A DNA stretch of 64,000 bases, from assembly GCA_003023785.1 (NCBI GenBank), contig PXRS01000077.1, positions 57,033 to 121,032 of the forward strand, written 5' to 3'. The translations under genes and the position numbers were made by a program. Source of the DNA: Halobacteriales archaeon QS_5_68_33. GTDB lineage: Archaea > Halobacteriota > Halobacteria > Halobacteriales > Haloarculaceae. The notes under the pieces are model-generated. The model saw nothing but the letters and a program-made list of their open reading frames with translations, had not been told where the DNA came from and made no database searches. Below are positions 161 through 63,988 of the stretch, piece after piece; position 1 is the first letter of the stretch, and each line of letters opens with the position of its first letter.

Positions 161-238
161 TACGGTCGGTTGTGGATCAGTTCCGGATTTCGTCGAACCG
201 GTCGGCGAAATACCGGTACATCGGTACAACCGACCGTA
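161..238 (+). mobile_element. MITE-like hairpin element, family 1, copy A (78 bp)
   Basis: Terminal inverted repeats TACGGTCGGTTGT ... ACAACCGACCGTA. Flanked by TGA (158-160) and TGA (239-241). About 90% identical to the copy at 62332, and in reverse orientation to those at 33423 and 42856. Confidence 0.8.
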
Positions 239-292
239 TGAGAGGGGGCCACGACCATAGACTATTGTCGCTCGCGGGCGAGACGGACGACG

Positions 293-466
293 ATGGTCGA
301 GATGATACGGACCGTGCTGGCGGCGCTCGCGGTCGTCCTCTTCGCGACGGCGCTGGCGGCGATGACGGCCCAGCGGCTGCGAGTGGCCGGGTTCTGCTTT
401 CTGAGCGCCAGCCTCGTCATCTACGTGCGCGAGACGCGGACCGCGGACGGGCCGGCCGGCGACTGA
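293..466 (+). CDS. small hydrophobic protein (57 aa), hypothetical
   Basis: ATG..TGA ORF read by hand (MVEMIRTVLAALAVVLFATALAAM...). Two hydrophobic stretches and GC-rich third codon positions. Below the 60-aa cutoff of the ORF track. Confidence 0.4.
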   Translation: MVEMIRTVLAALAVVLFATALAAMTAQRLRVAGFCFLSASLVIYVRETRTADGPAGD

Positions 467-493
467 CCGGCGAGGACACCCCGACGTGACGGG

Positions 494-813
494 CTAGTCG
501 TCGACGGTCATCCGGGTCGTTACCACCGGGATCGGCGACGTACGGACCACCTTGTCGGAGGCCCCGCCCAGCACCGCGCCGAACTTTCCCTTGTAGGCAC
601 TTCCCATGACGATGGCGTCCAGTACTCGCGGTAGTCTTCCCGCAGTTGCTCCTCGTCGTCCCTGACGTACACCGTCCGGGGCGCGCCCGGCAGGTCGATG
701 ACGTACAGCGCGTGGACGGACGCGCCCAGCGACGCCGCGAGGTCGATGCCGTGCTCGGCGGCCCGCTGTGATTCGTCGTTCCCGTCGTAGGGGATCAGAA
801 TAGCGTCGTACAT
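494..813 (-). pseudogene. universal stress protein (UspA family), frameshifted with an internal deletion
   Basis: The N-terminal 64 aa (MYDAILIPYDGNDESQRAAEHGIDLAASLGASVHALYVIDLPG...EDYREY) are in one frame. The typical USP C-terminus (LDAIVMGSAYKGKFGAVLGGASDKVVRTSPIPVVTTRMTVDD*) is in another. The junction lies near 620-625, and the middle of the domain is absent. Confidence 0.55.
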
Positions 814-882
814 TGCCTCTACCCTCACCGCCGATTCTCCTGTCGGATTCAAATAACTTTGGTGCGAGCGACCGTTCGCCTG

Positions 883-913
883 TACGGTCGGAAAAACGGA
901 TTCAGATCCCGTA
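883..913. repeat. possible 31-bp mini-derivative of the family 1 element
   Basis: TACGGTCGG...CCCGTA flanked by CTG/CTG. Similar architecture to the 30-bp copy at 4680. Confidence 0.3.
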
Positions 914-984
914 CTGAACCTCGGCAACGGTCGGCTCCCGAACCAATAATTACTACCTGGAGTATGTGATGTGGTCGGGAGCGG

Positions 985-2760: not shown

Positions 2761-4659
2761 ATGGCGACACACGGGGACAGCCCCGCCGAGCGGTTCCTCC
2801 GGAAGGCCTTGGTGCCCGTGTGCGTGCTCTCGGGGGCGCTCGTCGTCTCGGGGTTTTTCTTCCCGTGGTTCGTCGGGGGCGTGGTGTCGGGCGAGGGGTG
2901 GCTCGTCCTCGCGCTCCTGTTTTTCGGCACTGGACTGGCCTACCTCGCGCTGTTGCCGGTGCAGGCGCCCGAATCGGACGAGACGGTCGGCCGGGGGCGG
3001 ACGGTCAGGTACCTGCTGCGGATCCGCCACGGCCACTTCCGGCGGGCCATCGAACCCTTCTTCGAGCGCCAGGACGCGGTGACCTTCGGCGTGCCCGTCG
3101 CCGTGCTCGCGCTCTTCTTTCTCGTTCGCCTCCTCGCGCCCGGCGCGACCACCGGAGCCATCGGCGCCGCGGAGGCGTTCGTGCTGGGGGACATGGGGTG
3201 GCTGTTTCTGGGCGCGGTCCTGCTCGCGGTGCTCTACTGCGTCTTTCTCCTCGCGGGACCGTGGGGGGACGTCCGCCTCGGCGGCCCCGACGCCGAACCG
3301 ACCTACACGTATCCGACGTACTTCGCCCTCTTTTTCGCGGCGGGCATCGCCGCCGGCATCGTCTTCTGGGGTCCCGCCGAGGCGCTCTTTCACTACGGGT
3401 CCCCGCCGCCGTACTTCGGGACGGCGCCCGGGTCGAGCGCGGCGGCCGTCAACGCGCTCGCCTACGCTTTCTTTCACTGGGGGGTTTCGGCGTGGAGCCC
3501 CTACCTCGTGGTCGGGCTGCCCGTCGCGTATTTCGTCTACGACCGCGGCGCGCCGCTGCGGGTGTCGACGCTCTTGACCCCCTTCCTGGGCGTCGACGGC
3601 CTGGACTCTCTCCCCGCGAAACTGGTCGACGTCCTCGCCATCTTCGCGACCATCGGCGGCGTCGGCACCTCCGTCGCCTTCGTCAGCCAGCAGTTCCTCG
3701 CCGGCATCGACTACCAGTGGGGCGTCACCTACGGCGTCCTCGGGCCGGTCGTCCTCGTGGGGGGGCTGACCGCCATCTATGTCGTCACCGCGGGGTCGGG
3801 CGTCCACCGCGGGATCCGCCGGGTCGCCGGCGTGACCGTCGGCCTCTTCGCCCTCTTCGGCCTCCTCCTGCTGGCGCTCGGCCCGCGCTCGACGGTGTTC
3901 GCCTACGGCGGCCGGGCGCTCGGGCGCTACGCCGCGAACTTCCTCCCGATGAGCCTCTATCTCGGCGGGGAGTGGGTCGCCGACTGGACGGTCTGGAACT
4001 GGTCGTGGTGGTTCTCGTGGGCGCCGTTCGCCGGGCTCTTCCTCGCGGCCCTCTCGAAGGGCCGGACCGTCCGGACCGTCGTTGCGACGGCCGTCGGCGC
4101 CACCTCCCTGGCGACGATGGCCTGGTTCCTGGTGATGGGCGGGACGACCCTGGCGCTCCAGCACGGCGGTGCCGCGGACGTCCTCGGCGCCGTCGAGGCC
4201 TACGGCGGGTCCGAGGCCGTCGCCGGCTTCCCCGTCTTCGCCGCCCTCCCCATGAGCCAGCTGCTCATGTTCCTCTTTCTGGCGCTCATCGTCGTCTTCA
4301 TCACCACTTCGGCGGCCGTCTCGACGCTCGTCGTCGCCGTCCTCGCGACGAAACGGGCGTTCGCGCCGACGACCGGCGACGTCGTCTTCTGGGGCGTCCT
4401 CCAGGGTGCGGTCGCCACCGCGGTGCTGGCGCTGGGCGGCGGTCAGTCCCTCCAGGACGTGGCCGTTCTCACCGGCGGCCCGTTCGCGCTCGTCTCCGTC
4501 CTCGCCCTCGCGGGCCTGACCTGGACGCTCCGCCGCGACGAGGCCGATCGCGACCGGGTTCGTCGGTCGCTCCCCGGCAAGGCCAGGGCCGCCCTCGCCG
4601 CCCGCGACGTCACGCTCCTCCCGGAACGGCCCGACCTCGACGACGAGAAACGCGAGTGA
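2761..4659 (+). CDS. BCCT-family transporter (betaine/choline/carnitine type)
   Basis: 632 aa polytopic protein with BCCT-like blocks (FFHWGVSAWSPYLVVGLPVAYF, WTVWNWSWWFSWAPFAG). Carries a membrane N-terminal extension of about 100 aa. Confidence 0.88.
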   Translation: MATHGDSPAERFLRKALVPVCVLSGALVVSGFFFPWFVGGVVSGEGWLVLALLFFGTGLAYLALLPVQAPESDETVGRGRTVRYLLRIRHGHFRRAIEPFFERQDAVTFGVPVAVLALFFLVRLLAPGATTGAIGAAEAFVLGDMGWLFLGAVLLAVLYCVFLLAGPWGDVRLGGPDAEPTYTYPTYFALFFAAGIAAGIVFWGPAEALFHYGSPPPYFGTAPGSSAAAVNALAYAFFHWGVSAWSPYLVVGLPVAYFVYDRGAPLRVSTLLTPFLGVDGLDSLPAKLVDVLAIFATIGGVGTSVAFVSQQFLAGIDYQWGVTYGVLGPVVLVGGLTAIYVVTAGSGVHRGIRRVAGVTVGLFALFGLLLLALGPRSTVFAYGGRALGRYAANFLPMSLYLGGEWVADWTVWNWSWWFSWAPFAGLFLAALSKGRTVRTVVATAVGATSLATMAWFLVMGGTTLALQHGGAADVLGAVEAYGGSEAVAGFPVFAALPMSQLLMFLFLALIVVFITTSAAVSTLVVAVLATKRAFAPTTGDVVFWGVLQGAVATAVLALGGGQSLQDVAVLTGGPFALVSVLALAGLTWTLRRDEADRDRVRRSLPGKARAALAARDVTLLPERPDLDDEKRE

Positions 4660-4679
4660 CGGCGACGGCCGGGCCGTCA

Positions 4680-4709
4680 TACGGTCGGTTGTCGGAACCT
4701 CGACCCGTA
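4680..4709. repeat. internally deleted family 1 element (30 bp)
   Basis: Exact 13-nt left TIR TACGGTCGGTTGT preceded by TCA, with a degenerate right end CGACCCGTA. Lies about 20 nt downstream of the BCCT stop. Confidence 0.6.
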
Positions 4710-4780
4710 ATCGTCCCGAGAGGAGTTGTCCCGGTGGGGTTCGACGGCAGATATTAGGGAGCGTCGGGCGAGGGGAAGGT

Positions 4781-5161
4781 ATGAAACGGACTGTCAGCAC
4801 CGACGAAGCGCCCGCCGCCGTCGGGGCGTACAGCCAGGCGACGACCACCGGCGACCTGCTGTTCACCGCCGGGCAACTCCCCCTCACTGTCGAGGGCGAA
4901 CTCCTCGACGACGAACCCGTCGCCGTCCAGGCCCGCCAGTGTCTCGAAAACGTCGAGACCATTCTCGCATCCGAGGGCCTGGAGATGAGCGACGTGCTGA
5001 AGGTGACGGTCTTCCTCGACGACGTGGACGACTTCGCCGAGATGAACGACACCTACGCCGGGTTCTTCGAGGAGGACCCCCCGGCGAGAAGCGCTGTGGA
5101 GGTGGGCGCCGTCCCGAAAGGCGCCGCCGTCGAGATCGAGGCCATCGCCGCTGTGGAATGA
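4781..5161 (+). CDS. ridA: RidA/YjgF-family reactive-intermediate (enamine/imine) deaminase
   Basis: 126 aa. APAAVGAYSQA...GDLLFTAGQLP...PARSAVEV signature of the YjgF/RidA family. Confidence 0.9.
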   Translation: MKRTVSTDEAPAAVGAYSQATTTGDLLFTAGQLPLTVEGELLDDEPVAVQARQCLENVETILASEGLEMSDVLKVTVFLDDVDDFAEMNDTYAGFFEEDPPARSAVEVGAVPKGAAVEIEAIAAVE

Positions 5162-5162
5162 G

Positions 5163-5549
5163 GACGACGACCACCACGCCCGGGCGACGGCACTGTTCAA
5201 CGCGATCCAGGCCGGCGACCTCCCATACCGGCCGCTGTACACCACGGGTTACGTCCTCGCCGAGCTCGTCACCCTCGGGCTTGCGCGAGCGAACCACACG
5301 CTCGCTGCGACTGCCCTGCGACGAATCCGCGCCTCACCGTCGGTAACGGTGCTTCATCCTGACGAACCGATGTTCGCGGCCGTCTGTAACGAGTTCTACC
5401 GATACGACGACCAGGATATTTCACTCGTCGATCACGCGACCAGTGTGCTCGCCGACGAGCGCGATGTCGAACACGTCTTTACCTTCGATCCGGACGACTT
5501 TCGCACGCTCGGGTTCACCGTGGTCCCCGACGACACCGGCGAGGCGTGA
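5163..5549 (+). pseudogene. PIN-domain (VapC-like) toxin remnant lacking its N-terminus
   Basis: The open frame reads DDDHHARATALFNAIQAGDLPYRPLYTTGYVLAELV...DISLVDHAT...VFTFDPDDF, a PIN core. No start codon or first acidic strand remains because the frame runs into the ridA stop. No antitoxin ORF is adjacent. Confidence 0.45.
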
Positions 5550-5591
5550 CGCACGATGCTCGTCATTGCCGAGCCGATGGAACACCTCGTA

Positions 5592-7310
5592 TCAGAACAG
5601 TCCGTGAACGGTGCCGTCGTCGTCGACGTCCATGTTCGCGGCGGCGGGCTCGGCGGGGAGGCCGGGCAGGGTAAGCACGTCGCCGGTGAGCGCGACGAGA
5701 AAGCCCGCGCCGGCCGAGGGATAGACCTCCTTGACTTCCAGCGTCCAGTCCTCGGGCGCGCCTTTCAGTTCGGGGTCGTCCGACAGCGAGTGGAAGGTCT
5801 TGGACATGCAGACGGGCACGTCGTCGAAGCCCAACTCCTCCATGCGCTCGATGTCGTCCTCGGCGTCGCCGTGATACTTGACGCCATCCGCGCCGTATAT
5901 CTCGGTCGCGACCGTCCCGATCTTCTCCTGGATGGAGTCGTCGAGGTCGTACAGCGGTTCGAACGTCGAGTCGGCCGCGGCGGCGGCTTCCAGTTTCTCG
6001 GCGAGGTCGATTCCGCCCTCGCCGCCGTCGCTGAAGACGTTGGACTCCGCGGCCTCGACGCCCAGGTCCGCCTCGCAGTGTTCGATGACCGCGGCGACCT
6101 CGGCGTCGGTGTCCCCGGGGAAGCGGTTGACCGCCACGACGACCGGGACGCCGAACTTCCGGAGGTTGCTGACGTGCCTGTCGAGGTTCTCGAACCCCCG
6201 CCTGACGGCGTCGACGTTCTCCGCGTCGAGTTCGTCCAGGTCGGCCGGCCACATGTCGTAGCCGTGGTATTTCAGCGCGCGGACGGAGGCGACGAGCGTG
6301 ACCGCGTCCGGTTCCATGTCGCCGAACCGGCAGACGATGTTCATGAACTTCTCCGCGCCGAGGTCGGACCCGAACCCGGCTTCGGTGACGACGGTGTCGG
6401 CGAGGCGCGAGGCGACGTCGTCGGCCATCAGCGAGTTGGTGCCGTGGGCGATGTTCGCGAAGGGGCCGCCGTGGACGAACGCGGGCGTCCCCTCGATGGT
6501 CTGGACGACGTTGGGTTTCAGCGCGTCCTTCAGGAGGATGGAGACGGCGCCGGTGGCATCGATGTCCTCGACGGTGACGGGGTCGCCGTCCTCGTCGTAG
6601 GCGACGATGATCCGGGCGACCCGCTCTTTGAGGTCGGCGATGGAGTCGGCCAGACAGAGCACGGCCATCAGTTCGGAGGCGGCGGTGAGGATGAACCCGT
6701 CCTCGCGGGGGACGCCGGTGACGTCCCCGCCCAGACCGACCGTCGTCTCCCGGAGGACGCGGTCGTTCATGTCGATGGCGCGGGGCCAGTTGACCCAGTT
6801 GACCGCGACGTCGAGGTCGTTGCCCTGCTTGATGTGGTTGTCCAGCATCGTCGAGATGAGGTTGTGCGCCGAGGTCAGCGCGTGCAGGTCGCCCGTGAAG
6901 TGGAGGTTGATGTCCTCCATGGGGAGGACCTGCGAGTAGCCGCCGCCGGCGGCGCCGCCCTTGACCCCGAAGACGGGCCCCAGCGACGGTTCGCGGATGG
7001 CGACGAGGGCGTCGGTCCCGATCCGGTTGAACGCCTGGCCCAGCCCGACCGTCGTCACCGTCTTGCCCTCGCCCATCGGCGTCGGTGTCATCCCCGTCAC
7101 GAGCACGAGGTTCGCCGTCGCCTCGCGCTCGTTCCTGATCCGCTCGATCGCCGGGAGTTTCACCTTCGCCTTGTGCTCGCCGAACAGGTCGAGGTCGCCC
7201 CGCTCCAGCCCGTAGGGCGCCACCACGTCCGCGACGTGGGATTTCTCGACTGACTGTGCGATCTCGTAGTCGGTGGGAACGGACTCCTCGCTCTCCTCCA
7301 GTGAGGACAT
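5592..7310 (-). CDS. fhs: formate--tetrahydrofolate ligase
   Basis: FTHFS motifs (VTGMTPTPMGEGKTTVTVGLGQAF, full-length alignment-like layout). The ATG at 7310 is preferred over the track start at 7340. Confidence 0.93.
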   Translation of the reverse strand: MSSLEESEESVPTDYEIAQSVEKSHVADVVAPYGLERGDLDLFGEHKAKVKLPAIERIRNEREATANLVLVTGMTPTPMGEGKTVTTVGLGQAFNRIGTDALVAIREPSLGPVFGVKGGAAGGGYSQVLPMEDINLHFTGDLHALTSAHNLISTMLDNHIKQGNDLDVAVNWVNWPRAIDMNDRVLRETTVGLGGDVTGVPREDGFILTAASELMAVLCLADSIADLKERVARIIVAYDEDGDPVTVEDIDATGAVSILLKDALKPNVVQTIEGTPAFVHGGPFANIAHGTNSLMADDVASRLADTVVTEAGFGSDLGAEKFMNIVCRFGDMEPDAVTLVASVRALKYHGYDMWPADLDELDAENVDAVRRGFENLDRHVSNLRKFGVPVVVAVNRFPGDTDAEVAAVIEHCEADLGVEAAESNVFSDGGEGGIDLAEKLEAAAAADSTFEPLYDLDDSIQEKIGTVATEIYGADGVKYHGDAEDDIERMEELGFDDVPVCMSKTFHSLSDDPELKGAPEDWTLEVKEVYPSAGAGFLVALTGDVLTLPGLPAEPAAANMDVDDDGTVHGLF

Positions 7311-7542
7311 ACGCGGTGATTTTCCCGTCCCACTCATCAATGTTAGCGTACCTATAGATACCCGAATACGACGTGTTTGAACGCGGAACCCGGCCGGTCC
7401 GCGACCCGGAAAAAAGGGTGCGACCGGAGGGTTTCACGGACTGTCAGCGCCAGCCTGTCGGCGCCGCCCATCGTGATCCGCCGGTGACACGCTGTGCTTC
7501 GACTGATGGGCCGGCGGCGTCGACGGAGCGGGACCGCCCGGC

Positions 7543-9039
7543 TCATACGGTCGAGCGGTCCGCGACGTAGGCCCTGAGGTCGCGTTCGACCCCGGGGTCC
7601 ATCGGCGGCCGCTCGTAGCTCTCGAGGAGCGCGTCGACGCGGTCGCGTCCGAGTCCGAACGCCGAGGGTCGGTCGGCGGCCCAGTCGTCGTGGGCGCGCT
7701 TGTCGAGGACTGCGGACCGATGGAACGACGCCGATGCCTCGTCCTCTTCGAGGAAGTGGCCGGCCGGGTCGGCGTCGGCGATGCGGTCGAGCGCGAGCGT
7801 CCCCTCGTCGACGGTCACGCCCTGGCGAAACCGGGCGAGCGAGCGGAGCAACTCGCAGTCGAGGACGAACTTCTCGGGAGAGACGGCGGCGTAGGATTCG
7901 AGGACGCCCGCGGCGTTCAGGGCGAGGTCGACGCCGCCGAACGCGGTGACCGCGCCGAGCAGCCCCGATTCGAGGCCGCCCTGGTAGTCGACGGTCTTGG
8001 CGTCCGAGAGCGCCCCGCCCGCCCGGCAGGGCAGGCCGTAGTGGCGCGCCAACTGGCCGGCGAGCGCGACGAACAGCGCCGACTCCGGGCCGCCGATGGA
8101 GAGCGAGCCGTAGCGGTCGTCGATGGTCGCAGAGGGGACGCCGTAGACCACCGGGGTCCCGGGGTTGACGAGCTGGGCCAGCGCGACGAACGCGAGCGTC
8201 TCGGCGTTGGCCTGGACCAGCGACGCCGCGAGCGTCGGCGGCCCCGAGGCCCCTGCCATGGTGAACGACGAGACGACCAGCGGCTGGCCGTGGTCGGCGT
8301 AAGTCAGCAGGCCGCCGAGCATCGCCCCGTCGATGCTGCGGGGTGGCGTCGTGTTGACCAGTCCCGCGACGACCGGGTCGGAGCGCTCGCCCGCCTCGAA
8401 CGCGACGTCGGCCCGGTCGGCGAACGCGATCTCGACCATGTCCATGCAGGCCTGCGCGCGCTCTCCCCCGCGGGTCGGACCCATGACCGGCTTGTCAGTC
8501 AGGGTCAGCGACCGTTCCAGCATCGCGAGGTGCCTGTCGGCGCGCGGGACGTCCGTCGGCTCACAGAGGCTGTACCCCGCACACGTGATCACCTCCTCGG
8601 CGTGGGCGAGTTTCACGAGGCGCTCGTAGTCCGCGAGGCGGGCGTCCCGTCGTTCGTAGTTCGCCGCGCCAGCGGATCCGGCGACGTGGCGGTCCTGGTC
8701 TCCGCTCCCGCCGTCGAACGTGTGGACCGTCGAGGGGCCGTAGGCGGGCGCGCGGACTGGCGGGCCGTCACCGACGGTGACGTCTTTCTCCGGGTCGCGG
8801 GCGTGGAGCGTGAACGCGTCCGGCGCCCGGTCGACGGCGTCGGTGAGGAGCCCCCGCGGGAGCGTCGCGACGCCGTCGTCGTCGACGCGTCCTCCGGCGT
8901 CCTCGACGACCGCCCGGGCGCGCTCGTGGGTCAACTGGATCCCCACCTCCGCTATCACGTGCATCGACGCCTCGTGGACGGCCTCGACGCTCGCCGCGTC
9001 GAGTCTGTCCAGGCCGGGCGTCGCGTCGGAACTGTCCAC
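7543..9039 (-). CDS. MttB-superfamily methyltransferase, non-pyrrolysine type (quaternary-amine:corrinoid methyltransferase-like)
   Basis: 498 aa uninterrupted ORF with trimethylamine-methyltransferase-family layout and no in-frame TAG. Confidence 0.75.
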   Translation of the reverse strand: MDSSDATPGLDRLDAASVEAVHEASMHVIAEVGIQLTHERARAVVEDAGGRVDDDGVATLPRGLLTDAVDRAPDAFTLHARDPEKDVTVGDGPPVRAPAYGPSTVHTFDGGSGDQDRHVAGSAGAANYERRDARLADYERLVKLAHAEEVITCAGYSLCEPTDVPRADRHLAMLERSLTLTDKPVMGPTRGGERAQACMDMVEIAFADRADVAFEAGERSDPVVAGLVNTTPPRSIDGAMLGGLLTYADHGQPLVVSSFTMAGASGPPTLAASLVQANAETLAFVALAQLVNPGTPVVYGVPSATIDDRYGSLSIGGPESALFVALAGQLARHYGLPCRAGGALSDAKTVDYQGGLESGLLGAVTAFGGVDLALNAAGVLESYAAVSPEKFVLDCELLRSLARFRQGVTVDEGTLALDRIADADPAGHFLEEDEASASFHRSAVLDKRAHDDWAADRPSAFGLGRDRVDALLESYERPPMDPGVERDLRAYVADRSTV

Positions 9040-9170
9040 TGGCCGCCCGTTTTCGAGAGCGCCACAAAAGGATTTGCGCGCCGACCACGAGCGGTCAGAC
9101 GGGCGTCACGTCGTGGTTCATCTCGATCGTGTGACAGGATTTTGCGGGGGTCGCAACCCACGGTCGTGGC

Positions 9171-9620
9171 ATGGAGTACCACGAAGCGGTGAACCGGCTG
9201 GAGCGGTTGCGGCGGCTCCGGCCCAAGCTGGGGACCGAGACGACCGCCGCGCTCCTGGCGCACCTGGACGACCCCCACGAGGACCTGACCTGGGTACAGG
9301 TCGCCGGGTCGAACGGCAAGGGGAGCACGGCGCGCGTACTCGGTCGGATCCTCCGCGAGGCGGGCCTCTCGGTCGGGTGTTACACCTCGCCGGACCTGAA
9401 CGACCTCCGGGAGCGCGCCACCGTCCGGGGGCAGCCAATTCCGAAGGCCGAGGTGTGCGGGTTCGTCGGGGCGGCCTGGCCGTTCGTCGTCGACCGCGGC
9501 GCGACCATCGTCGACGTCGGCGGCGAGTCGACGCGGCCGGGCGCCGACATGCTCGACGACGTCACCGGTCTCGAAGACGCCGCGATGCGCCGCGTCGTCG
9601 CCACCGCCGGCAACGAGTAG
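9171..9620 (+). pseudogene. mosaic remnant of a folC-folP (folylpolyglutamate synthase / dihydropteroate synthase) fusion gene
   Basis: 149 aa. The FolC N-terminus (VAGSNGKGSTARVLGRIL..GCYTSPDL) is joined in frame to two short DHPS blocks (IVDVGGESTRPGA; MLDDVTGLEDAAMRRVV), followed by a stop. Confidence 0.55.
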
Positions 9621-9989
9621 CGCGAAACTCGAAAAACACGAAAACTGATGTTTTGTGAACGGCGGTTCGACGACCGGTCCGTCCCGACGGTCCCCGTCGT
9701 CGTTCCCGCGGGCGTCTCGCCGGACGTGGGCCGGAAAAACGGACGACCACGCCACACAGGTGCAAAATTCGGACACCCGGACGCGGTCCGGAAGCCACGG
9801 ACCTCCGCACACGCGGTCGTCCGCGTTCGCTCGTCGTGTAACGGAACTGTCGGTAAGGCTGTCATTTAATATCGGACAGCACTTCCCTCGAAAAACGAGC
9901 ATGAAACTGACAGGAACGCCGGCCGCGCGGGCCGTCGACAGTGCAACGAACGGCGGCGACCGAACGACACACGCCGGGGGGCGAGGCCG

Positions 9990-12518
9990 ATGAGCGGCGA
10001 CCTCCCGGACCACGCGCGGACCGTGGTCCTCGGCGCCGGCATCGTCGGGAACAGCCTGACCTACCACCTCGCGGAGCAGGGTCGCGACGACATCCTGCTG
10101 GTCGACAAGGGGCCCCTCCCCGACCCCGGGGGCTCGACCGGGCACGCCTCGAACTTCCTGATGCCCGTCGAGCACTCCAAGGAGATGACCCACCTCACGC
10201 GCGAGAGCATCGAGCAGTACAAGGACATGGACACGTTCGTCAACAGCGGCGGGATCGAGCTGGCCCGCACCGACGAACGCGTCGCGGAGCTCGAGCGCCG
10301 CGTCCAGTCGGCGAAGTCCTGGGGCGAACCGGCCGAACTGCTCACCCCCGAGGAGGTCGAGGAGCTCGTCCCCTACGTCAACACGGACATCGTCAAGGGC
10401 GGATTCTACAGCAAGGGCGCGGGGACCTGCGACCCGCTCCGGGCCGGCGAGGTGATGCGGGCCCGCGCCGACCACGCGACCGAGGGCGGCCTGACGGTCT
10501 CGCCCAACACCGAAGTGCTCGACATGCACGTCGAGGCCGGCGAAATCCAGGCCGTGAAGACCGACCGCGGGACCGTCACCGCCGACGAGGTCGTCATCGC
10601 CGCCGGGCTCTGGAGCCCGAAACTCGCGGCGATGGCGGGCGTCGAGATCCCGCTCACGCCGGCGGTCCACCAGCTCATCAGCGTCGGGCCGATCTCCTAC
10701 TTCGAGGACTACGAGGGCGAGATCTCGTTCCCCGTGGTCCGGGACATGGACACCCAGATGTACGAGCGCCAGCACGGCAACGACATGGAGGTGGGCTCCT
10801 ACCAGCACCGGCCCATCCTCTGGGACGTCGAGGACATCCCCTCGATCGACGAGGCGCCCCTCTCGCCGACCCAGCCACCCCTCACGGACGACGCCTTCGA
10901 GCAGTCCATGGAGAACGCCCTGGAGATCGTCCCCGAACTGCTCGACGACCCGGAGGCCGGCGTCCGCCACGAGATCGACGGCCTGCTGTCGGTGACGCCC
11001 GACGGCGCGCCGCTGCTTGGCCCGCTCCAGGACGTCGAGGGACTGTGGTCGGCCGCCGCCGTCTGGATCAAGGAGGCGCCGGCCATCGGCGAGGCCCTCG
11101 CCCAGTGGATGACGCGGGGCTGGTCGGACATCGACCTCCACAGCTCGAACGTCAACCGGTTCAAGGAGTGGGGCACCTCCCGCGAGTTCGTCAAGGACCG
11201 CGCCCACGAGGGTTACCGGAAGATCTACGGCATCGTCCACCCCCGCGAGCAGTGGCAGTCCTCGCGCCCCCTGCGGACGAGCGCCTTCTACCACCGCCAG
11301 GACGACCTCGACGCCCGCTTTTTCCAGGCCGGCGGCTGGGAGCGCCCCCAGTGGTACGACTCCAACGAGGACCTCGTCCGGCGCTACAACGAGGAACTCG
11401 ACGGCCTCCTGCGGGCCAACGAGTGGGACTCCCGGTGGTGGTCGCCGGTCATCCTCGGCGAGCACCTGCACATGCGCGACAAGGTGGCCATGGTCGGGGA
11501 CATGGGCTTTGCCATCTTCGACCTGCTGGGACCGGGCGCGACCGAGTACGCCGAGAGGATGGCGGTCGGCCGGATGGACGTCGACGTCGGCAAGTCCGTC
11601 TACACGCCGGTCCTCGCGCCCAACGGCGGGTTCGTCTCGGACCTTTCCATCGTCCGGATGGGCGAGAACCACTACCGGGTCATCACCGGCGGCTCCGTCC
11701 AGGGACCGGACAAGGCGCACTTCCGCTCGCACCTGCCCGAGGACGGCTCGGTCCAGCTGGTCGACCGGTCCTCCCAGCTCTGCACGCTCGGCGTCTGGGG
11801 ACCCGACGCGCGGGACGTGGTCGACCCCGTCACCGAGGAGGACATGTCCCACGAGGCGTTCGCCCCCTACACCGCCCAGCACGTGACCATCGGCGAGGTC
11901 GACGCCTGGGCGCTCCGAATATCGTACGTCGGCGAGCAGGGCTGGGAGATCTACGCCCCGATGGACCAGGCCGAGCGGCTCTGGGACACCCTCTACGAGG
12001 CCGGCCAGGACCACGACATCCGCCCCGTCGGCATGGGCGTCTACGGGACGACCGGCCGCATGGAGAAGGGGTATCGCCTCTACGGGCACGAACTCGAACT
12101 GGAGTACACGCCCGCCGAGGCCGGCCTGACCTTCCACGGCGTCAAGGACGCCGACTTCGTCGGGAAGGAGGCCTACGCCGCCGGTATCGACGAGGAGAAC
12201 GCGGCGACGCTGTGTACGCTCTCGGTCGACGACCACCGCTCCGAGGACGGCGACCGCCGGTTCATGCTCGGGAACGAACCCGTCCTCGACGACGGCGAGG
12301 TGCTCGTCGACGACGAGGGCCGCCGGTCGTACGTCACAAGCGCCGGCACCGGGCCCACCGTCGGCAAGCACCTCCTGATGGCGTATCTCCCCCGGGAGTA
12401 CGCCGAGGAGGGGCGGGGCCTCCAGGTCGAGTACATGGGCGAACGGTACCCGGTGACGGTCGAGGTGGCCGGCAGCCGGCCGCTGTTCGACCCCGAAAAC
12501 GAGCGGATACGGAGCTAA
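9990..12518 (+). CDS. dimethylglycine/sarcosine dehydrogenase-type FAD oxidoreductase fused to a GcvT-like folate-binding aminomethyltransferase domain
   Basis: 842 aa. N-terminal dinucleotide fold VVLGAGIVGNSLTYHLAEQG, a DAO-type domain, and a C-terminal GcvT domain. Immediately followed by etfBA. Confidence 0.88.
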   Translation: MSGDLPDHARTVVLGAGIVGNSLTYHLAEQGRDDILLVDKGPLPDPGGSTGHASNFLMPVEHSKEMTHLTRESIEQYKDMDTFVNSGGIELARTDERVAELERRVQSAKSWGEPAELLTPEEVEELVPYVNTDIVKGGFYSKGAGTCDPLRAGEVMRARADHATEGGLTVSPNTEVLDMHVEAGEIQAVKTDRGTVTADEVVIAAGLWSPKLAAMAGVEIPLTPAVHQLISVGPISYFEDYEGEISFPVVRDMDTQMYERQHGNDMEVGSYQHRPILWDVEDIPSIDEAPLSPTQPPLTDDAFEQSMENALEIVPELLDDPEAGVRHEIDGLLSVTPDGAPLLGPLQDVEGLWSAAAVWIKEAPAIGEALAQWMTRGWSDIDLHSSNVNRFKEWGTSREFVKDRAHEGYRKIYGIVHPREQWQSSRPLRTSAFYHRQDDLDARFFQAGGWERPQWYDSNEDLVRRYNEELDGLLRANEWDSRWWSPVILGEHLHMRDKVAMVGDMGFAIFDLLGPGATEYAERMAVGRMDVDVGKSVYTPVLAPNGGFVSDLSIVRMGENHYRVITGGSVQGPDKAHFRSHLPEDGSVQLVDRSSQLCTLGVWGPDARDVVDPVTEEDMSHEAFAPYTAQHVTIGEVDAWALRISYVGEQGWEIYAPMDQAERLWDTLYEAGQDHDIRPVGMGVYGTTGRMEKGYRLYGHELELEYTPAEAGLTFHGVKDADFVGKEAYAAGIDEENAATLCTLSVDDHRSEDGDRRFMLGNEPVLDDGEVLVDDEGRRSYVTSAGTGPTVGKHLLMAYLPREYAEEGRGLQVEYMGERYPVTVEVAGSRPLFDPENERIRS

Positions 12519-20643: not shown

Positions 20644-20644
20644 C

Positions 20645-51000: not shown

Positions 51001-51030
51001 TGCGGTCGGTTGCAATCCTGCCGGCTGTAA
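51001..51030. repeat. adjacent solo TIR fragments of family 1 and family 3
   Basis: TGCGGTCGGTTGC (family 1-like, preceded by TCG), then CCTGCCGGCTGTAA (family 3-like), directly abutting the family 2 element. Confidence 0.5.
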
Positions 51031-51138: not shown

Positions 51139-52380
51139 TCACTCCTCGCCGGACTCGTAGTGCTCCCCTGCCGCGGAGGGGATCCGGGTGCGGCCGACCA
51201 GCGCGAGGACGACGATGACCATCACGAAGGGGGTGACCCGGATGAGCTGGTTGGGGACGCCGACGTCGCGCAACTGGAGGACGATCTGCAGCGCGTCGAG
51301 GCCCGCGAACAAAAGCGTCGAGAGGAACGCGCCGACGGGGTTGTAGTTGCCGAAGAGGTAGGCGACGATGGCGATGAACCCCTTGCCGTTGACCATCGTG
51401 GGGCCGTTGCCGGTGAACTGGCCGAGCGTCAGCGAGAGGGCCGACCCGCCCATCCCCGAGAGAACGCCCGACAGCAAGACTGCGGCGTACCGGACGCGGC
51501 TGACGTCGACGCCGGCGGTGTCCAGCGCCCGGGGATTCTCGCCGCTGGCCCGGACCCATCGGCCGAACTGCGTCCGGTAGAGGCCGTACCACGACAGCGC
51601 CACCATCAGGAAGGTCAGGTACACGACGACGTTCGCCTCGACCAGCGCCCCGACGAGGACGACGACGACCACGTAGTGGACAGCGCCCGCGACGGTCACG
51701 ACCGCCTCGACCAGCAATCCCGCGAGCGGGACGCCGCCGGTCGCGTTCCGGAGGCCCGTGGCGACGGTGACGACGGCGGCGCCGAACCCCGTTGCGGCCG
51801 AGACGAGCACCCTCAGCACGTCGCCGACGACCGGCAGGCCGAGGACGACGTCGGCGGCACTGGGGGGCGTCCGGACGCTCGTGGTGTTGGGTGCGCCGTA
51901 GATGACCTGCGAGGCGAAGGGGGCGAGGCCGAGCGCGATCAGCCAGACGGCGAGACCGGCGATGATCTGGTCGGCGCGGAACTCGATGCAGACGACGGCG
52001 AACAGCGCCGCGAGGAGGGTGCTCGCGACCACCCCCGCGCCGAAGCCGACCCAGAGGTTGCCGGTCAGGTCCGTCGCGTAGATGGCCCCGAACGCCGAGA
52101 TGATCAACAGCCCCTCCAGGCCGATGTTGATGACGCCGCTCTTCTCGGCGAAGATACCCCCGAGCGCCGCCAGCACGATGGGCACCGACAGCCGCAGCGC
52201 GGAACTGAGCGTGCCCGCGGAGAAAATGACGTCGACCAGCGTGCCCGCGATGGTCCCCGGGAAGAGGAGGCCGAGGGCCGTGAACGCCGCGAACGCGACG
52301 CCGCTGGCGACCGCGGCCTGGCCGCGCCTGCCGAGGTCCAGGTCGGCCCCGCGCCGGCGCACCCGTTCGAGCGTGCTCAT
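51139..52380 (-). CDS. BMP-family (nucleoside/simple sugar type) ABC transporter permease
   Basis: Starts at MSTLERV (ATGA overlap with the upstream gene). GIFAEKSGVINIGLEGLL and RASGENPRALDTAGV blocks. Confidence 0.8.
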   Translation of the reverse strand: MSTLERVRRRGADLDLGRRGQAAVASGVAFAAFTALGLLFPGTIAGTLVDVIFSAGTLSSALRLSVPIVLAALGGIFAEKSGVINIGLEGLLIISAFGAIYATDLTGNLWVGFGAGVVASTLLAALFAVVCIEFRADQIIAGLAVWLIALGLAPFASQVIYGAPNTTSVRTPPSAADVVLGLPVVGDVLRVLVSAATGFGAAVVTVATGLRNATGGVPLAGLLVEAVVTVAGAVHYVVVVVLVGALVEANVVVYLTFLMVALSWYGLYRTQFGRWVRASGENPRALDTAGVDVSRVRYAAVLLSGVLSGMGGSALSLTLGQFTGNGPTMVNGKGFIAIVAYLFGNYNPVGAFLSTLLFAGLDALQIVLQLRDVGVPNQLIRVTPFVMVIVVLALVGRTRIPSAAGEHYESGEE

Positions 52381-56603: not shown

Positions 56604-57052
56604 GTTCGGGCACACAGACACGTGAGCGGGTCATAAAGCCGTCGCCGTCACCGCCACGTTCGAAGAGATCCGGTCACGGAGCTCTCCTATCGAAGGGAGG
56701 ATCCTCGCCGGTCTATACGGACCGGCCTCTCCCGTTGAAAACGGCTTTGTTGCGGTTCTCCAGCATGTATATCGGTCTTATATTTTGGACCGTGGTTCGC
56801 TCAACGGGACCCGTCCCGATACTCCGGCGGCAGTCCGGTCGATCCGGTCGTGGTTGCCACACTTCGGGTTTCCGGACAGCAGTTGGAAATCGAGCACCGA
56901 TATTATCAGTATCTTTATCTGATCGGTCAAACAACAGATATCGTAAGTATCGTCCGAACGCCGAGTCCGGGACGGGCGAAACGGCCTCGAACCGGACGTG
57001 GACCCGACAGGGAACGTCGATGTCACCGGGTTGCGCGAGGGGTCGCCCATCG

Positions 57053-57126
57053 TACGGTCGGTTGTAACTGTTTGCCGGTGATTCGCCGGGCGGGCGGATC
57101 CCGGAGATGACTGACAACCGACCGTA
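57053..57126 (-). mobile_element. MITE-like hairpin element, family 1, copy I (74 bp)
   Basis: TACGGTCGGTTGT...ACAACCGACCGTA with flanks TCG / TCA. Diverged core related to copy G. Confidence 0.75.
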
Positions 57127-57219
57127 TCAAACCCGGCGAGACGCTCGGCGTCCGTCCTCCCGCATCGCGGTCAGACGCGGAAGGGGAGCTTTATGAGGTG
57201 ATCGGCCCATCGCTTCGGT

Positions 57220-57996
57220 ATGCGATTCGTCCGCTACGACGACGACCAGCTCGGGCTGCTGACAGACGACGGCGACCCCGACCACGCGGTCGCGGACGTC
57301 GCCCTCCGGGCGCCGGTCGGCCGCCCCGGCAAGGTGGTCGCCGCGCCCCTGAACTACGAGAACCACATCGAGGAGGCGCTGGCCGACCGCGACATCACCA
57401 CCGACGAGTGGTTCTCGATCACGGACAAGGGCTACTTCCTGAAAGCGCCCTCCAGCGTCGTCGGCCCCGACCACGGGGTCGAACTCCCCTTCGCCGACCG
57501 GCGGACCGACCACGAGGTCGAACTCGCGTTCGTCATGGGCGCGGAGGCCAGGGACGTCCCTGCTGCGGAGGCCTGGGACCACATCTTCGGCTACACCGTT
57601 CTGCTGGACATCTCGCTGCGGGGCGACCAGGACCGCTCGAACCGCAAGTCCTACGACACCTTCACCGTAATCGGCCCGTGCGTGGCGACCCCCGACGAGG
57701 TGGGCGACCCCCAGGACCTGGAGATGCACCTCGACCTGAACGGCGAGCGCCGCCAGGCCGAGAACACCCGCGACATGGTCTACACCTGCGCCGACGTCGT
57801 CCAGTACGCCTCGCTGGGGACGACCCTGGAGGTGGGCGACGTGGTCACGACCGGGACGCCGGAGGGCGTCAGCGAACTCTCGGACGGCGACCGGATCGAG
57901 GCCGGCATCGAGGGCATCGGGTCGATGACCGTCGACGTGACCGAACGCGACGTCAGCTACGCCGAAGCCGACGTCTCGAAGGGCGGCCAGGAGTAG
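57220..57996 (+). CDS. fumarylacetoacetate hydrolase (FAH) family protein
   Basis: 258 aa with FAH-fold blocks (HEVELAFVMG, DISLRG, GDVVTTGTPEGV). Confidence 0.85.
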   Translation: MRFVRYDDDQLGLLTDDGDPDHAVADVALRAPVGRPGKVVAAPLNYENHIEEALADRDITTDEWFSITDKGYFLKAPSSVVGPDHGVELPFADRRTDHEVELAFVMGAEARDVPAAEAWDHIFGYTVLLDISLRGDQDRSNRKSYDTFTVIGPCVATPDEVGDPQDLEMHLDLNGERRQAENTRDMVYTCADVVQYASLGTTLEVGDVVTTGTPEGVSELSDGDRIEAGIEGIGSMTVDVTERDVSYAEADVSKGGQE

Positions 57997-60942: not shown

Positions 60943-62205
60943 TCACCGCTCGTCCCACGGGGAGATGGGGTACTGGAGGTCGAGTGCCCGGTCGGAGTCG
61001 GTGTCCGGGTAGACCAGTCGCTGGGCGCCGTCCCACCACTGGCCGGTGGGGGCGGTGAGTTCGCCCTCCGCGGGGAGGCCGTTGTCCTCGAAACTGAACG
61101 TGCCGATGACCGTTTCGAACTCCTCGCCGCGCAGCGCCGACTGGATCGCTCCGGGCTCCAGCGAATCGGCGGCCTCGACCGCCTGCTGGGCCACCTGCGT
61201 GAGGTTGTACGAGCCGCCGACGTTGACTGCCAGGTACTCCGAGTCGTCGTCGTACTCGGACTCGTATCGGTTCCTGAGCTGCTCGTTGCCGTTGCCGGTC
61301 AGCCCCGGGACCCACCCCGGACACATCAGGGCGTAGGCCCCCGCGTCTTCGAGGGCCGACCACCACGCCGAGGGGTCGGCCCCGCGGACGAACTGCAGCA
61401 TGTCAGGCGCCCAGCCGTTCTCCCGCATCTGGTTGACGGCCGTGATACCCCCGCCCGGCGTCGGGTTCGAGAGCAACACCTCGACGCCGGCGCTCTCGGA
61501 CCGGGAGATGAGCGTCGAGAAGTCCTCGGACCCGATCTCGAAGGTCTCGCGCAGGACGACCTCGTACCCCTCCGCGCTCAGGCGGTCCTCCCAGTAGCCG
61601 GCCTGCTCCGCGCCCCACCCCGAGTTGGGCTCCCAGATGCCGACCTGGCCGGGGCGCTCGGACTCGGAGATGAGTTCCAGCGTCCCGAGCGTCGACCGCG
61701 TGATGTCCCGCGATTTGGGGAACGGCGCGTAGGTCCACTCGTAGCCGTCGTTGCGGTGGGGCTCCTCGTAGGCGAACGCGATCCCCAGGAAGGGCAGTTC
61801 CTGGTTCTCGGCGAAGGCGCTGCCCGCGGTCACGAGCAGACTGGAGAAACTCCCCCAGATCATGTCGACGTCGTTGTTGCTCGTGATCGCCTGGAGCTGC
61901 TCGCGCAGCGTCTGGGCGTCGCTCTCGTCGTCGCGCACGACGAGGTTGACCTCGCGGTCGAGTTCCTCGTTCATCCGCTGCTCGCCGAGTTCGTACCCGC
62001 GACGGAGGTCCTGTCCCAGCGACGAGAACCGCCCCGACTCCGGGATGGTCGCGGCGATGGTCAGCGGGTCTTGGTCGCCCGTCGACGTGCCGCCACCGTC
62101 CTCGCCGAGCGTGCACCCCGCCAGCCCGGTCAGCGCTGCGATACCTGCTGCCCCTGTGCCTCTCAGATACCTACGCCGCGATACGGATCGCTCTTGCTGA
62201 GCCAT
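60943..62205 (-). CDS. Liv/amide-type (type I PBP) substrate-binding lipoprotein
   Basis: Tat/lipobox SRRRYLRGTGAAGIAALTGLAGC with a cluster-B PBP-like layout. Start at MAQQERS. Confidence 0.78.
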   Translation of the reverse strand: MAQQERSVSRRRYLRGTGAAGIAALTGLAGCTLGEDGGGTSTGDQDPLTIAATIPESGRFSSLGQDLRRGYELGEQRMNEELDREVNLVVRDDESDAQTLREQLQAITSNNDVDMIWGSFSSLLVTAGSAFAENQELPFLGIAFAYEEPHRNDGYEWTYAPFPKSRDITRSTLGTLELISESERPGQVGIWEPNSGWGAEQAGYWEDRLSAEGYEVVLRETFEIGSEDFSTLISRSESAGVEVLLSNPTPGGGITAVNQMRENGWAPDMLQFVRGADPSAWWSALEDAGAYALMCPGWVPGLTGNGNEQLRNRYESEYDDDSEYLAVNVGGSYNLTQVAQQAVEAADSLEPGAIQSALRGEEFETVIGTFSFEDNGLPAEGELTAPTGQWWDGAQRLVYPDTDSDRALDLQYPISPWDER

Positions 62206-62331
62206 ACCTTGGTGTGCGATATCTATGATGGAATATAAAGGTGTATGATCATCCGGGAACGACGCCGGGTTTCCCGCGTCGTTCGGGCTGCGGGGAAGGC
62301 GGAACATTCCGCTCCGGAGGCGGGCCCGTCA

Positions 62332-62409
62332 GACGGTCGGTTGTCAATGGTTTCCGGATTTCGTCGAACCGGTCGGCGAAATACCGGTAAATCGGTACAC
62401 CCGACCGTA
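62332..62409 (+). mobile_element. MITE-like hairpin element, family 1, copy J (78 bp)
   Basis: GACGGTCGGTTGT...ACACCCGACCGTA flanked by TCA (62329-31) and TCA (62410-12, the stop codon of the dioxygenase). Confidence 0.85.
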
Positions 62410-63522
62410 TCAGTCGCCGGAGGGCTGAGCCTCGGCGTAGAAGTTGAACGCCTCGAAGACGGGGCGGTCGGTCATGCCGAGGAGGACCGCCTCGTCGTCG
62501 GGGTCGTGGTGGTGGGTGGCGTCCGGCGGCACCACGAAGACGTCCCACTGGCCCCACTCCAGGGCCTCGTCGTCGACGTGGGTGGCGCCCTCGCCCTCGA
62601 TGACGAAGTAGATCTCCGTCGCGTTGTGGAAGTGGGCGTCGGTCGTCCCGTCGAGGAGTTGCGCCCGAAAGGACATCGTCGGGAACAGCGGCGGTTTGCC
62701 CGCGGCGGGGTTGACGTAGGCGACGCTGTAGCCGTCGTACGGGTCGGGGTCGCCGTTGTCGGCGCGCTGGCGCAGCGTCTCCGCCATCCGATTCCACCGG
62801 AAGCGGTAGGGCGGCGTCGCCTCGGCTTTCCCCTCGAAGGGGCCGGGGATGCCGTCGGACCGCTCGTCGGCGGGGCGGCCGCGGCCGTACTGCGAGTCCC
62901 AGTAGCCCCGGGTCTTGGTGACGGGCTGGCGTTCGAGTTCGTGGTTCTCGAAGGCCTGGGTCTTGTTCAGCGAGTCCAGAAAGAGCGGGAGGTCGAGCAC
63001 GTCCAGCCACGCGGCCGTCTCGTCGCCGTCGTTGACGTGGTCGTGCCACTCCCACTGGGGCGTCGTCACGAGGTCGTTGTCCCGCATCGGGAACTCCTCG
63101 CCGGCGACGACCGTCTTCATGTCCTCGTGCCCGTCGATGGTAAAACGCAGCGCGTTCCCCGAGTGGCGGTGGGCGGGCGCGGTCTCGCCCGGGGAGACGG
63201 TCTGGACGCCGACGTAGATCGTGTTCGAGATGGCGTTGCCGATCGAACTGTTGATCGGGACCGCGACCCGCCGCTGGAACCCCGGCGGCAGGTCCGCGAT
63301 GGGGACGTCCGCCTCGATGCTGTCGATCGCCGTCCGGATGTCCTCCCACTTCCAGATGCCCGGCTCCAGGTCGTTGATGACCGTCCCGAAGTCGTCCTCG
63401 ACCTCCCACAGCGGCCGCAACCCGTTGTCGGCGAGGATCCCCCGCGTCTCGGCACTCAACTCGAGGAGGTCCTCGGGGTCCCGTTCCTCCTGCTGTTGCT
63501 CGTCGGACTCTTGCTGGGCCAT
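62410..63522 (-). CDS. gentisate 1,2-dioxygenase-like bicupin
   Basis: Two cupin modules (PGETAPAHRHSGNALRFTIDG...WEWHDH; ...THFHNATEIYFVIEGEG). Start at MAQQESDEQ. Confidence 0.78.
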   Translation of the reverse strand: MAQQESDEQQQEERDPEDLLELSAETRGILADNGLRPLWEVEDDFGTVINDLEPGIWKWEDIRTAIDSIEADVPIADLPPGFQRRVAVPINSSIGNAISNTIYVGVQTVSPGETAPAHRHSGNALRFTIDGHEDMKTVVAGEEFPMRDNDLVTTPQWEWHDHVNDGDETAAWLDVLDLPLFLDSLNKTQAFENHELERQPVTKTRGYWDSQYGRGRPADERSDGIPGPFEGKAEATPPYRFRWNRMAETLRQRADNGDPDPYDGYSVAYVNPAAGKPPLFPTMSFRAQLLDGTTDAHFHNATEIYFVIEGEGATHVDDEALEWGQWDVFVVPPDATHHHDPDDEAVLLGMTDRPVFEAFNFYAEAQPSGD

Positions 63523-63608
63523 GGTCACCGGTTGGCACAGATCCGGCATAAGTGTACTGGCCGACCGCTCTCGCGGCAAACCGACCTGACGACCGCGACG
63601 CTCGGCCG

Positions 63609-63782
63609 CTAGACGGCCTGTGCGTCGAACACGTCCTTCGAGGGGAAAATCGCCCGACAGTCCTCACAGACCATCTGCCCCTGGATGGCGTACTCCCAGA
63701 GCTTGCCGCCACAGTCCAGACAGTCGAAGTGCGCCTCGACGAACGGGTTCTCCTCGGCGTAGGGGTTCTCGAACTCGGCCAT
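63609..63782 (-). CDS. small zinc-finger protein (57 aa)
   Basis: CLDC...CEDC pairs. Start at MAEFENPY within track ORF 63609..63842. Confidence 0.5.
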   Translation of the reverse strand: MAEFENPYAEENPFVEAHFDCLDCGGKLWEYAIQGQMVCEDCRAIFPSKDVFDAQAV

Positions 63783-63880
63783 GTGTGTACGTGACGAGCG
63801 TCCGCACAAAAGGATATCGTTGGCCGGGGTTCGAGGCAGCACGTCGGGCCTTCAGGAGGCCGGAGGCGGGGGCCCGGTCA

Positions 63881-63988
63881 TACTGTCGGACACAAGTGAT
63901 GCCACCGTCCCGGTGACTGTTTCGGGGTCTTCGAGATGCATGTCCCCGAACGTCGACGAGTACGTTCACGTACTTGTGTCCGACAGTA
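63881..63988 (+). mobile_element. MITE-like element, family 2 (108 bp)
   Basis: TIRs TACTGTCGGACACAAGT ... ACTTGTGTCCGACAGTA flanked by TCA (63878-80) and TCA (63989-91). Confidence 0.85.

Follow-up and report, generated by a model that had tools for sequence, protein, structure and literature searches.

The 64,000-nucleotide stretch analysed here, positions 57,033 to 121,032 of contig PXRS01000077.1 from Halobacteriales archaeon QS_5_68_33 (hereafter, the window), carries nine copies of short, hairpin-forming repeats that an earlier note on this DNA had sorted into three related families. [quoted passage not shown] The families are undescribed in the searchable literature; they form a new, widespread, and currently orphan group of a general type, the MITE, that is already known.

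A re-check of the sequence places all nine elements at the coordinates given in the earlier note, with the lengths and termini reported there. The 13-mer that forms the family-1 terminus, TACGGTCGGTTGT, has 16 matches in the window at two or fewer mismatches, against 1.5 expected, and none of 100 shuffled sequences reaches 16. The termini of the nine copies are perfect or near-perfect inverted repeats of 13–17 bp that extend to the ends of the elements. At 74–108 bp, the elements are too short to encode a transposase. The window had been described as free of transposase genes, and a scan of about 50 of its open reading frames (ORFs) against NCBIfam or Pfam returned no transposase domain. The density had been called very high, and nine copies in 64 kb, or about 140 per Mb, indeed lie at the upper end of the 100–146 per Mb that MITE densities reach in an archaeal census (PMC11602168). 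Identical trinucleotides flank six of the nine copies (161, 33423, 42856, 62332, 25866, and 63881), the same six that had been noted before. In the remaining three, the flanks are tcg/tga (46360), tcg/tca (57053), and taa/tca (51031). No further repeat family was found in the window.

Mobility and the Duplicated Triplet

That the elements are mobile and non-autonomous, with inverted termini and a 3-bp target duplication, had been deduced from the window alone. Five pairs of filled and empty sites in Halomicrobium now bear this out for sister families of the window's elements. The comparison is of two whole syntenic plasmids, pLC1Hm-01 and pHmuk01, whose flanking sequences are about 93–95% identical and whose elements are 78–82 bp long. 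Empty sites hold a single TGA or TCA, and filled sites hold two, flanking the element, as follows. At pHmuk01 87715–87793, the filled site reads caac-TGA-element-TGA-cgccgtc and the empty site caac-TGA-cgccgtc. The elements at pHmuk01 202422–202500 and pLC1Hm 12941–13018 lie between TGA and TGA where the other plasmid has a single TGA, and the element at pLC1Hm 123655–123733 lies between TCA and TCA where the other has a single TCA. In the fifth pair, at pHmuk01 187625–187703, the filled site has TCG on the left, a mutated copy, and TCA on the right, and the empty site a single TCA. Since there is one triplet at the empty site and two at the filled site, the duplicated unit is the triplet, and the terminal TA belongs to the element. 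Mobility is recent: presence and absence vary, with target duplications, between plasmids that are 93–95% identical.

The earlier note had given the target as T(C/G)A. TCA and TGA are indeed duplicated, but the target is not confined to them. TAA..TAA flanks occur twice on pLC1Hm-01, and two metagenome loci show a family-1 element interrupted by a family-3 element, L170 at 504–640 and L196 from 5168 on the minus strand. The insertion point is the TAA of ..TTGTAAG.., which has become duplicated. The target is therefore TNA. Stacked degenerate ends in the window, at 51001–51030, may be the remains of a nesting event like those in L170 and L196. When the 46 copies bearing a TNA on each side are pooled, the two flanks agree in 37 of them, where 43% would be expected to agree (p = 3e-7). 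Of these 92 flanks, 85 are TCA or TGA, and 7 are TAA. A longer target context, YTSAR, was first read from the flanks; a fuller count gives only "rarely A before, mostly G after", and the context is not claimed.

Close relatives of the window's genome show the same variation. The family-1 copy at 42856 is shared with a 97% identical relative (L038), and an 88% identical relative (L039) is empty at this site, with a single TGA that is a stop codon. Conversely, L039 has a family-1 copy directly after the stop codon of MoeA2, where the window is empty. The copy at 62332 is also present in a 96% identical relative, L036. One other locus, L019, was considered as an ortholog of the 42856 copy and rejected, as its flanks are non-homologous and the match consists of the element plus GC-rich noise. 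Relatives at 81–85% protein identity (L037, L040, L198, and L199) were also set aside as sources of empty sites, their intergenic DNA being too diverged for placement of the junction.

Many copies sit at the ends of genes. Of 40 family-1 copies, 16 (about 40%) adjoin the stop codon of a real gene. There are four such cases in the window, namely the family-1 copies at 42856 and 62332, the family-2 copy at 51031, and a solo family-1 end at 35255. For comparison, TGA stop codons make up about 15% of the non-coding TSA triplets (S being C or G) in the window, which is an underestimate, as some genes are uncalled; the enrichment of insertions at stop codons is thus a modest one. Both TGA and TAA serve as stop codons, and since the duplication restores the stop, an insertion at the very end of a gene would do no harm. 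Selection for such harmless insertions is the simplest explanation of the excess. Insertion that regenerates a stop at TGA or TAA also offers a mobile element a route to high density in a compact genome without disruption of genes.

Element Anatomy and Occurrence in Haloarchaea

Each element had been said to fold as one long imperfect hairpin. This holds for families 1 and 3, with DNA folding z-scores of −5.9 to −9.6. It does not hold for family 2, in which a 17-bp terminal stem closes a branched interior with two or three small hairpins. The family-1 anatomy was derived from single-sequence folds of 40 oriented copies. The outer stem of 13–16 bp is made by the termini. It is followed by an asymmetric internal loop that is conserved in sequence and unpaired, with ..AAGTCAGTT on the left arm and TAAATCGTT.. 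on the right arm. Further in, a CCGG/CCGG stem bears a single bulged base on its 3′ side, and the apex is a stem of 8–10 bp with a loop of 3–7 nt. The apex pairs in every subfamily despite its differing sequence: ATTTCGTCGA/TCGGCGAAAT, GGTTCGCCGG/CCGGCGAACC, TCGATCGCA/TGCGATCG, and ACGTCGACCC/GGGTCGAC. RNAalifold, applied to 24 family-1 copies, recovers the outer stem and the CCGG stem only, because indels misalign the apex; hence the use of single-sequence folds. Family 3 shares the architectural plan of family 1. The termini of the elements have the form TAC(G/T)GNCGG..., 13–17 bp inverted, with some variation among the family-3 copies retrieved by BLAST.

Pairing of the arms is a property at the DNA level. 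Either the arms are two co-evolving binding sites of one protein or they form a folded DNA substrate. Nothing points to a strand-specific RNA role. Folded as RNA, the plus strand does better in 23 copies and the minus strand in 15, the mean difference being −0.9 ± 3.8 kcal/mol, and no strand bias of G·U pairs was seen among the copies. Relative to the stop-adjacent gene, six copies have the same orientation and ten the opposite, which is no bias. The earlier note had raised the possibility of a known structured RNA family. A search of the whole window against Rfam 15 at gathering scores gave no match; nor were tRNA genes found in the window.

We suggest that the parts of the element correspond to steps of transposition. 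The mover would be a DDE-type transposase that cuts the two strands at TNA with a stagger of 3 nt; the duplicated triplets are mostly TCA or TGA in these GC-rich genomes. The outer 13 bp would be the cleavage site, and the inner CCGG-plus-apex part of each arm the binding site. The arms would co-vary between subfamilies because one protein must bind both.

The elements are not unique to the window, a point that the earlier note had put forward for checking; families 1 and 3 are found in many other haloarchaea. A scan for exact family-1 termini, with one genome per species, gave at least 33 loci in Halosimplex, Halapricum, Haloarcula, Halovenus, Natronosalvus, and several Halobacteriales metagenome-assembled genomes. 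Family 1 is thus present, with identical termini, in at least five genera in addition to these assemblies. BLAST, which does not require the termini, adds plasmids of Haloarcula and Halostella. For family 3, BLAST identified 12 plasmids of Haloarcula, Halomicrobium, Natribaculum, and Haloplanus, with matches at up to 14 places on a single 224-kb plasmid. Halomicrobium plasmids carry 13 copies per plasmid of about 220 kb. There are also further sister families, for example one with the ends TACGGACNNTTGT, in Natrinema and Halomicrobium. Viral contigs contained no elements, the scan of them giving 115 single chance matches.

In the public records examined, the elements are unannotated, the matches lying under no feature or under a wrongly extended ORF. 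Three family-3 copies lie under annotated RefSeq coding genes, at NC_015944.1 293445–293528, NC_013201.1 59002–59085, and NZ_CP084092.1 233528–233611; the overlying genes are for an M48 metalloprotease, a hypothetical protein, and a universal stress protein. These genes may be over-extended ORFs or real C-terminal fusions. In close relatives, some metagenome contigs end at an element or only a few bases from one, as in L036, which ends at 5315, and L038, of 3256 bp. The elements appear to break short-read assemblies of these genomes.

The Missing Transposase and Alternative Readings

About 1.1 Mb of haloarchaeal DNA and targeted scans of sequence collections yielded no autonomous element bounded by these ends, and this negative result weighs against a conventional MITE group, as do the points that follow. 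A search of 548 kb of loci gave no parent element, and pairs of termini 0.3–4 kb apart are separate small copies or truncated copies, the latter adjoining a tRNA gene or the feoAB genes. A generic scan of both Halomicrobium plasmids and the window for TNA-flanked inverted repeats 0.5–3.5 kb apart returned GC-rich chance pairs only, and the viral contigs yielded single chance matches and no autonomous element. Two metagenome scans, which demanded a T at a position occupied by A, C, or G in all complete small copies, gave 0 and then 30 hits and no insertion sequence (IS); the haloarchaeal hits were truncated, nested, or 232-bp copies. The flanks are unequal TNA triplets in nine of the 46 pooled copies, six of the nine combining TCA with TGA. 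At one identical site, with TGA..TGA flanks in both of two 96% identical genomes, the window has a family-2 element of 108 bp (63881–63988) and L036 a family-3 element of 78 bp (3716–3793). The apex always pairs across subfamilies, and the 1-nt bulge and the asymmetric internal loop are kept; a plain model of fused ends predicts neither this nor the unequal flanks and the two families at one site. Finally, the genome loci (n = 33) were fetched through their exact termini, and the terminus conservation there is partly built in.

Several of these observations have more than one reading. The two families at one site are explained either by replacement or by repeated independent hits on a hotspot. 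A comparable change of family is seen within one intergenic region between the Halomicrobium plasmids. A study of Haloquadratum lists "SwitchRepeats", distinct repeats at an identical position (PMC3119063). Such a family swap at one site is a concrete case for studies of the turnover of small elements. The conserved apex pairing, bulge, and internal loop would fit a hairpin DNA substrate equally well.

Other searches were directed at candidate partners. In the material searched, the longest element with these ends measures 232 bp. pLC1Hm-01, with 13 copies, has no annotated transposase. The only transposase-type genes of pHmuk01 are an IS1595-family gene and a TnpB gene. Neither fits as the partner: the duplication made by IS1595 elements is 8 bp long, and TnpB elements make none. 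Unannotated gaps in the plasmids translate as a probable CRISPR array, with repeated peptide motifs, or as no recognizable protein, as judged without a Pfam scan. An ORF beside a truncated end at pLC1Hm 208879 was considered as a transposase and turned out to be a membrane protein. The missing partner could be uncommon, could carry other ends, or could exist as a single-copy gene.

The 232-bp form is a family-1 variant with TGA..TGA flanks, found in L186 (5248–5479) and in L189, L190, and L191. Its interior includes a 47-nt stretch (compare L197, 3001–3047) that matches, at 89% identity, the 3′ end of tnpB on a plasmid of Halorientalis marina, whose TnpB has OrfB_IS605 and Cas12f1-like TNB domains. 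The annotated "transposase" under the BLAST match of the variant was rejected as a candidate, being TnpB and not a DDE enzyme. From its sequence, the variant looks like a small element with a fragment of an IS1341-type right end as a passenger, rather than a parent.

A different kind of maintenance is conceivable, although we think it rather unlikely. The group would be kept by a single-copy, possibly host-retained transposase gene without a conventional parent IS, and the enzyme would read the folded hairpin, with its bulge and internal loop, and not two duplex ends. RAYT genes, which maintain REP sequences, provide a model for a host-retained transposase of this sort. Such an enzyme would account for the co-variation of the apex, for the lack of an autonomous copy in about 1.1 Mb, and for the replacement of one family by another at the same TNA.

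Outside transposition in trans by a DDE enzyme, the elements could be selected regulatory modules of RNA or DNA at the ends of genes (terminators, mRNA stabilizers, or promoters), with mobility incidental or extinct. The hairpin kept across subfamilies, with compensatory changes in the apex and a conserved bulge, the location of about 40% of copies directly after a stop codon, and the strong folding z-scores of −5 to −9.6 would all fit. However, there are no Rfam matches, G·U pairs show no strand bias, and orientation is unbiased (six versus ten). Copies also lie in divergent promoter regions, for example at 25866 and 57053, and plasmids 93–95% identical differ in the presence or absence of elements, with the target duplicated. 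We regard this explanation as improbable.

An explanation of still lower probability is that the elements resemble REP or PATE sequences and are moved as single-stranded DNA hairpins by an HUH (Y1) transposase of the RAYT or IS200/IS605 TnpA type. In its favour, the whole element is a hairpin with a co-varying stem, IS1341-type TnpB genes are common in haloarchaea (PMC3119063), and no DDE partner was found in the material searched. The 232-bp variant, with its fragment matching the 3′ end of tnpB, would also fit. HUH elements lack terminal inverted repeats that reach the very ends; they insert beside a fixed tetra- or pentanucleotide and make no duplication. The present elements, in contrast, have inverted repeats that extend to the last base, and comparison with empty sites reveals a genuine 3-bp duplication, neither of which is a property of HUH-type elements.

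It is very improbable that the elements are of the IS630/Tc1-mariner type, like Correia, ERIC, and MITEEc1, with TA duplicated, true ends at CGG.../CTG..., and TSA a mere flanking preference. Every element does start and end with TA, and the ends of families 2 and 3 (TA|CTG...ACAAGT) are loosely mariner-like. Yet the empty sites ...caacTGAcgcc... and ...ccgccTGAccgc... have no TA at the junction, and the filled sites read TGA-TAC...GTA-TGA, so that TA is part of the element, TGA is what is duplicated, and duplication of TA is excluded. The last alternative would make the elements attC recombination sites of the integron type, each closing a gene cassette at its 3′ end. It draws on their form (imperfect palindromes of 60–140 bp that have conserved ends, a centre variable in sequence though structured, and a bulged base) and on the position of many copies directly after ORFs. 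It is hardly credible, as the inserted unit is the 78–82 bp element alone with its 3-bp duplication and not a gene plus site, the elements occur in both orientations among housekeeping genes and in no array, and about 50 scanned window ORFs gave no integrase-family match.

Among known repeats, the closest analogues of these putative MITEs in behaviour are the hairpin MITEs of bacteria, Correia (CREE) of Neisseria, about 104–157 bp, and ERIC of enterobacteria, about 127 bp. These, too, are short, encode nothing, end in inverted repeats, and are plentiful between genes, and they are predicted to form stable stem-loops. A review lists both as MITEs, the movement of Correia being argued from strain differences in location, and gives a 5′-TA-3′ motif at both termini of ERIC-type repeats (PMC3184786). 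The present elements differ in being archaeal, shorter (74–82 bp), unrelated in sequence, and flanked by a 3-bp TNA duplication. Correia elements duplicate TA.

By the type of duplication, the closest relatives would be Tourist/Harbinger elements and some subgroups of the IS5 family. Tourist-like MITEs of the PIF/Harbinger group and the IS5 subgroups IS1031, ISL2, and IS427 have a 3-bp target of the T-N-A type. A duplication of 2–4 bp at a TNA-type target, as expected of derivatives of these IS5 subgroups, is what we find here (TCA, TGA, and TAA). Harbinger, a eukaryotic superfamily, duplicates TWA (TTA/TAA), whereas C or G predominates at the central base in the present elements and A occurs in some copies. 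IS5-family ends begin with GG or GAG; the present termini begin with TAC. No IS5- or Harbinger-type transposase was found next to these termini in the loci and plasmids scanned. The link to IS5 or PIF/Harbinger put forward in the earlier note is thus a possible one, drawn from the duplication; the termini do not resemble those of either group.

Within the same class of hosts, MITEHsal1–14 and ISH2 of Halobacterium and the HqIRS MITEs and SMR-A/B of Haloquadratum, all described by Pfeiffer, Dyall-Smith, and colleagues, are also transposase-free mobile repeats that outnumber transposons. The SMRs are 80–110 bp long with prominent inverted ends and no known transposase; they make no duplication and target IS605-type palindromes (PMC3119063). 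In contrast to SMR-A/B, the present elements duplicate their target, a TNA that lies either in ordinary DNA between genes or at a stop codon. Every Halobacterium MITE has been placed in a known ISH class, and the only MITE duplication reported in the text consulted is of 7 bp (PMC7002104). The present termini are absent from the supplementary tables of the Haloquadratum study. The literature on haloarchaea and mobile elements that was searched contains neither the terminus strings nor ISfinder-style MITE names built on six haloarchaeal species prefixes.

The high MITE load of the Haloarculaceae clade is already noticed in a census published in Nucleic Acids Research in 2024, where the richest archaeon, with 251 MITEs, is an unclassified member of the Haloarculaceae, GCA_003021305.1, and a Halovenus genome is close behind (PMC11602168). 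The counts are automated and come without definition of families, duplication, target, or mechanism (PMC11602168). The elements make up a visible share of the intergenic DNA of many Halobacteria, and a defined group of families enables masking and annotation, the use of presence and absence as strain markers, and a search for the transposase in complete genomes. The wider principle, MITEs with a short duplication, is well known.

Copies and Neighbouring Genes in the Window

The window has a G+C content of 68–74%, its predicted proteins are strongly acidic (D+E 16.5%, K 1.9%), one of them being 100% identical to a protein of the metagenome-assembled genome QS_5_68_33, and its genes are ordinary metabolic and transport genes. 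Six elements belong to family 1. The first, at 161–238 on the plus strand (78 bp; 158–241 with flanks), has a TGA..TGA duplication and perfect 13-bp termini, and its DNA hairpin has a folding energy of −27.1 kcal/mol (z = −5.9). The element at 33423–33500 (minus strand; 33420–33503 with flanks) has a TCA..TCA duplication and decayed termini, GACGG.. and ..ACGACC. That at 42856–42933 (minus strand; 42853–42936) has a TGA..TGA duplication, of which the left TGA is the stop codon of a MOT1 molybdate transporter gene, 41698–42855. The element at 46360–46436 (plus strand, 77 bp; 46357–46439) lies between convergent genes, and that at 57053–57126 (minus strand, 74 bp; 57050–57129) is in a divergent promoter region. 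The last, at 62332–62409 (plus strand; 62329–62412), has a TCA..TCA duplication, the right TCA being the stop codon of a minus-strand gentisate 1,2-dioxygenase gene, 62410–63549.

The two family-2 elements, each of 108 bp, are in opposite orientation to each other and agree at 102 of 108 positions, which matches the identity of about 94% given before. At 51031–51138 (51028–51141 with flanks), the right TCA is the stop codon of a minus-strand branched-chain permease gene that starts at 51139. The other, at 63881–63988 (63878–63991), has a TCA..TCA duplication, TGA..TGA on the opposite strand, and is the one whose site holds a family-3 element in the 96% relative. The single family-3 element, at 25866–25943 (78 bp; 25863–25946), has a TCA..TCA duplication and a hairpin of −30.7 kcal/mol (z = −9.6); it is placed in a divergent promoter region, between an HdrA-like gene and a large molybdoenzyme gene.

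Three partial features had been overlooked. A solo family-1 left terminus at 4680–4692 (plus strand; 4677–4709) matches at 13 of 13 positions, is preceded by tca, and lies 21 nt past the stop codon of a BCCT transporter gene, 2761–4659. It may be a degenerate 30-bp remnant with the end CGACCCGTA. A solo right terminus lies at 35243–35255 (minus strand; 35243–35258), where the TCA at 35256–35258 is the stop codon of a minus-strand TFX-domain gene, 35256–35675. The third is the stack of degenerate termini at 51001–51030, made of a family-1-like TGCGGTCGGTTGC and a family-3-like CCTGCCGGCTGTAA, which adjoin the family-2 copy at 51031.

A few of the neighbouring genes deserve mention in their own right. 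The cluster at 2761–12518 contains genes for the BCCT transporter, an L-PSP/Rid protein, a formate–tetrahydrofolate ligase, and an MttB-family methyltransferase, as well as for an 842-residue protein that joins an FAD oxidase to a GcvT-like domain. This content suggests catabolism of betaine or methylated amines. The segment at 13287–31671 is a run of redox genes, for an electron-transfer flavoprotein alpha subunit, an aldehyde:ferredoxin oxidoreductase, an HdrA-like flavoprotein, an Fe-S subunit, and a cytochrome b, and includes two formate-dehydrogenase-like molybdopterin subunits of 704 and 1140 residues. The FAA-hydrolase gene at 57220–57996 encodes 258 residues, versus about 292 in nearly all of the 120 homologues listed. 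Compared with three homologues of 292–299 residues, it lacks 34 residues, in frame, after ..LLTDDG, a gap that is unconnected with the neighbouring element at 57053–57126.

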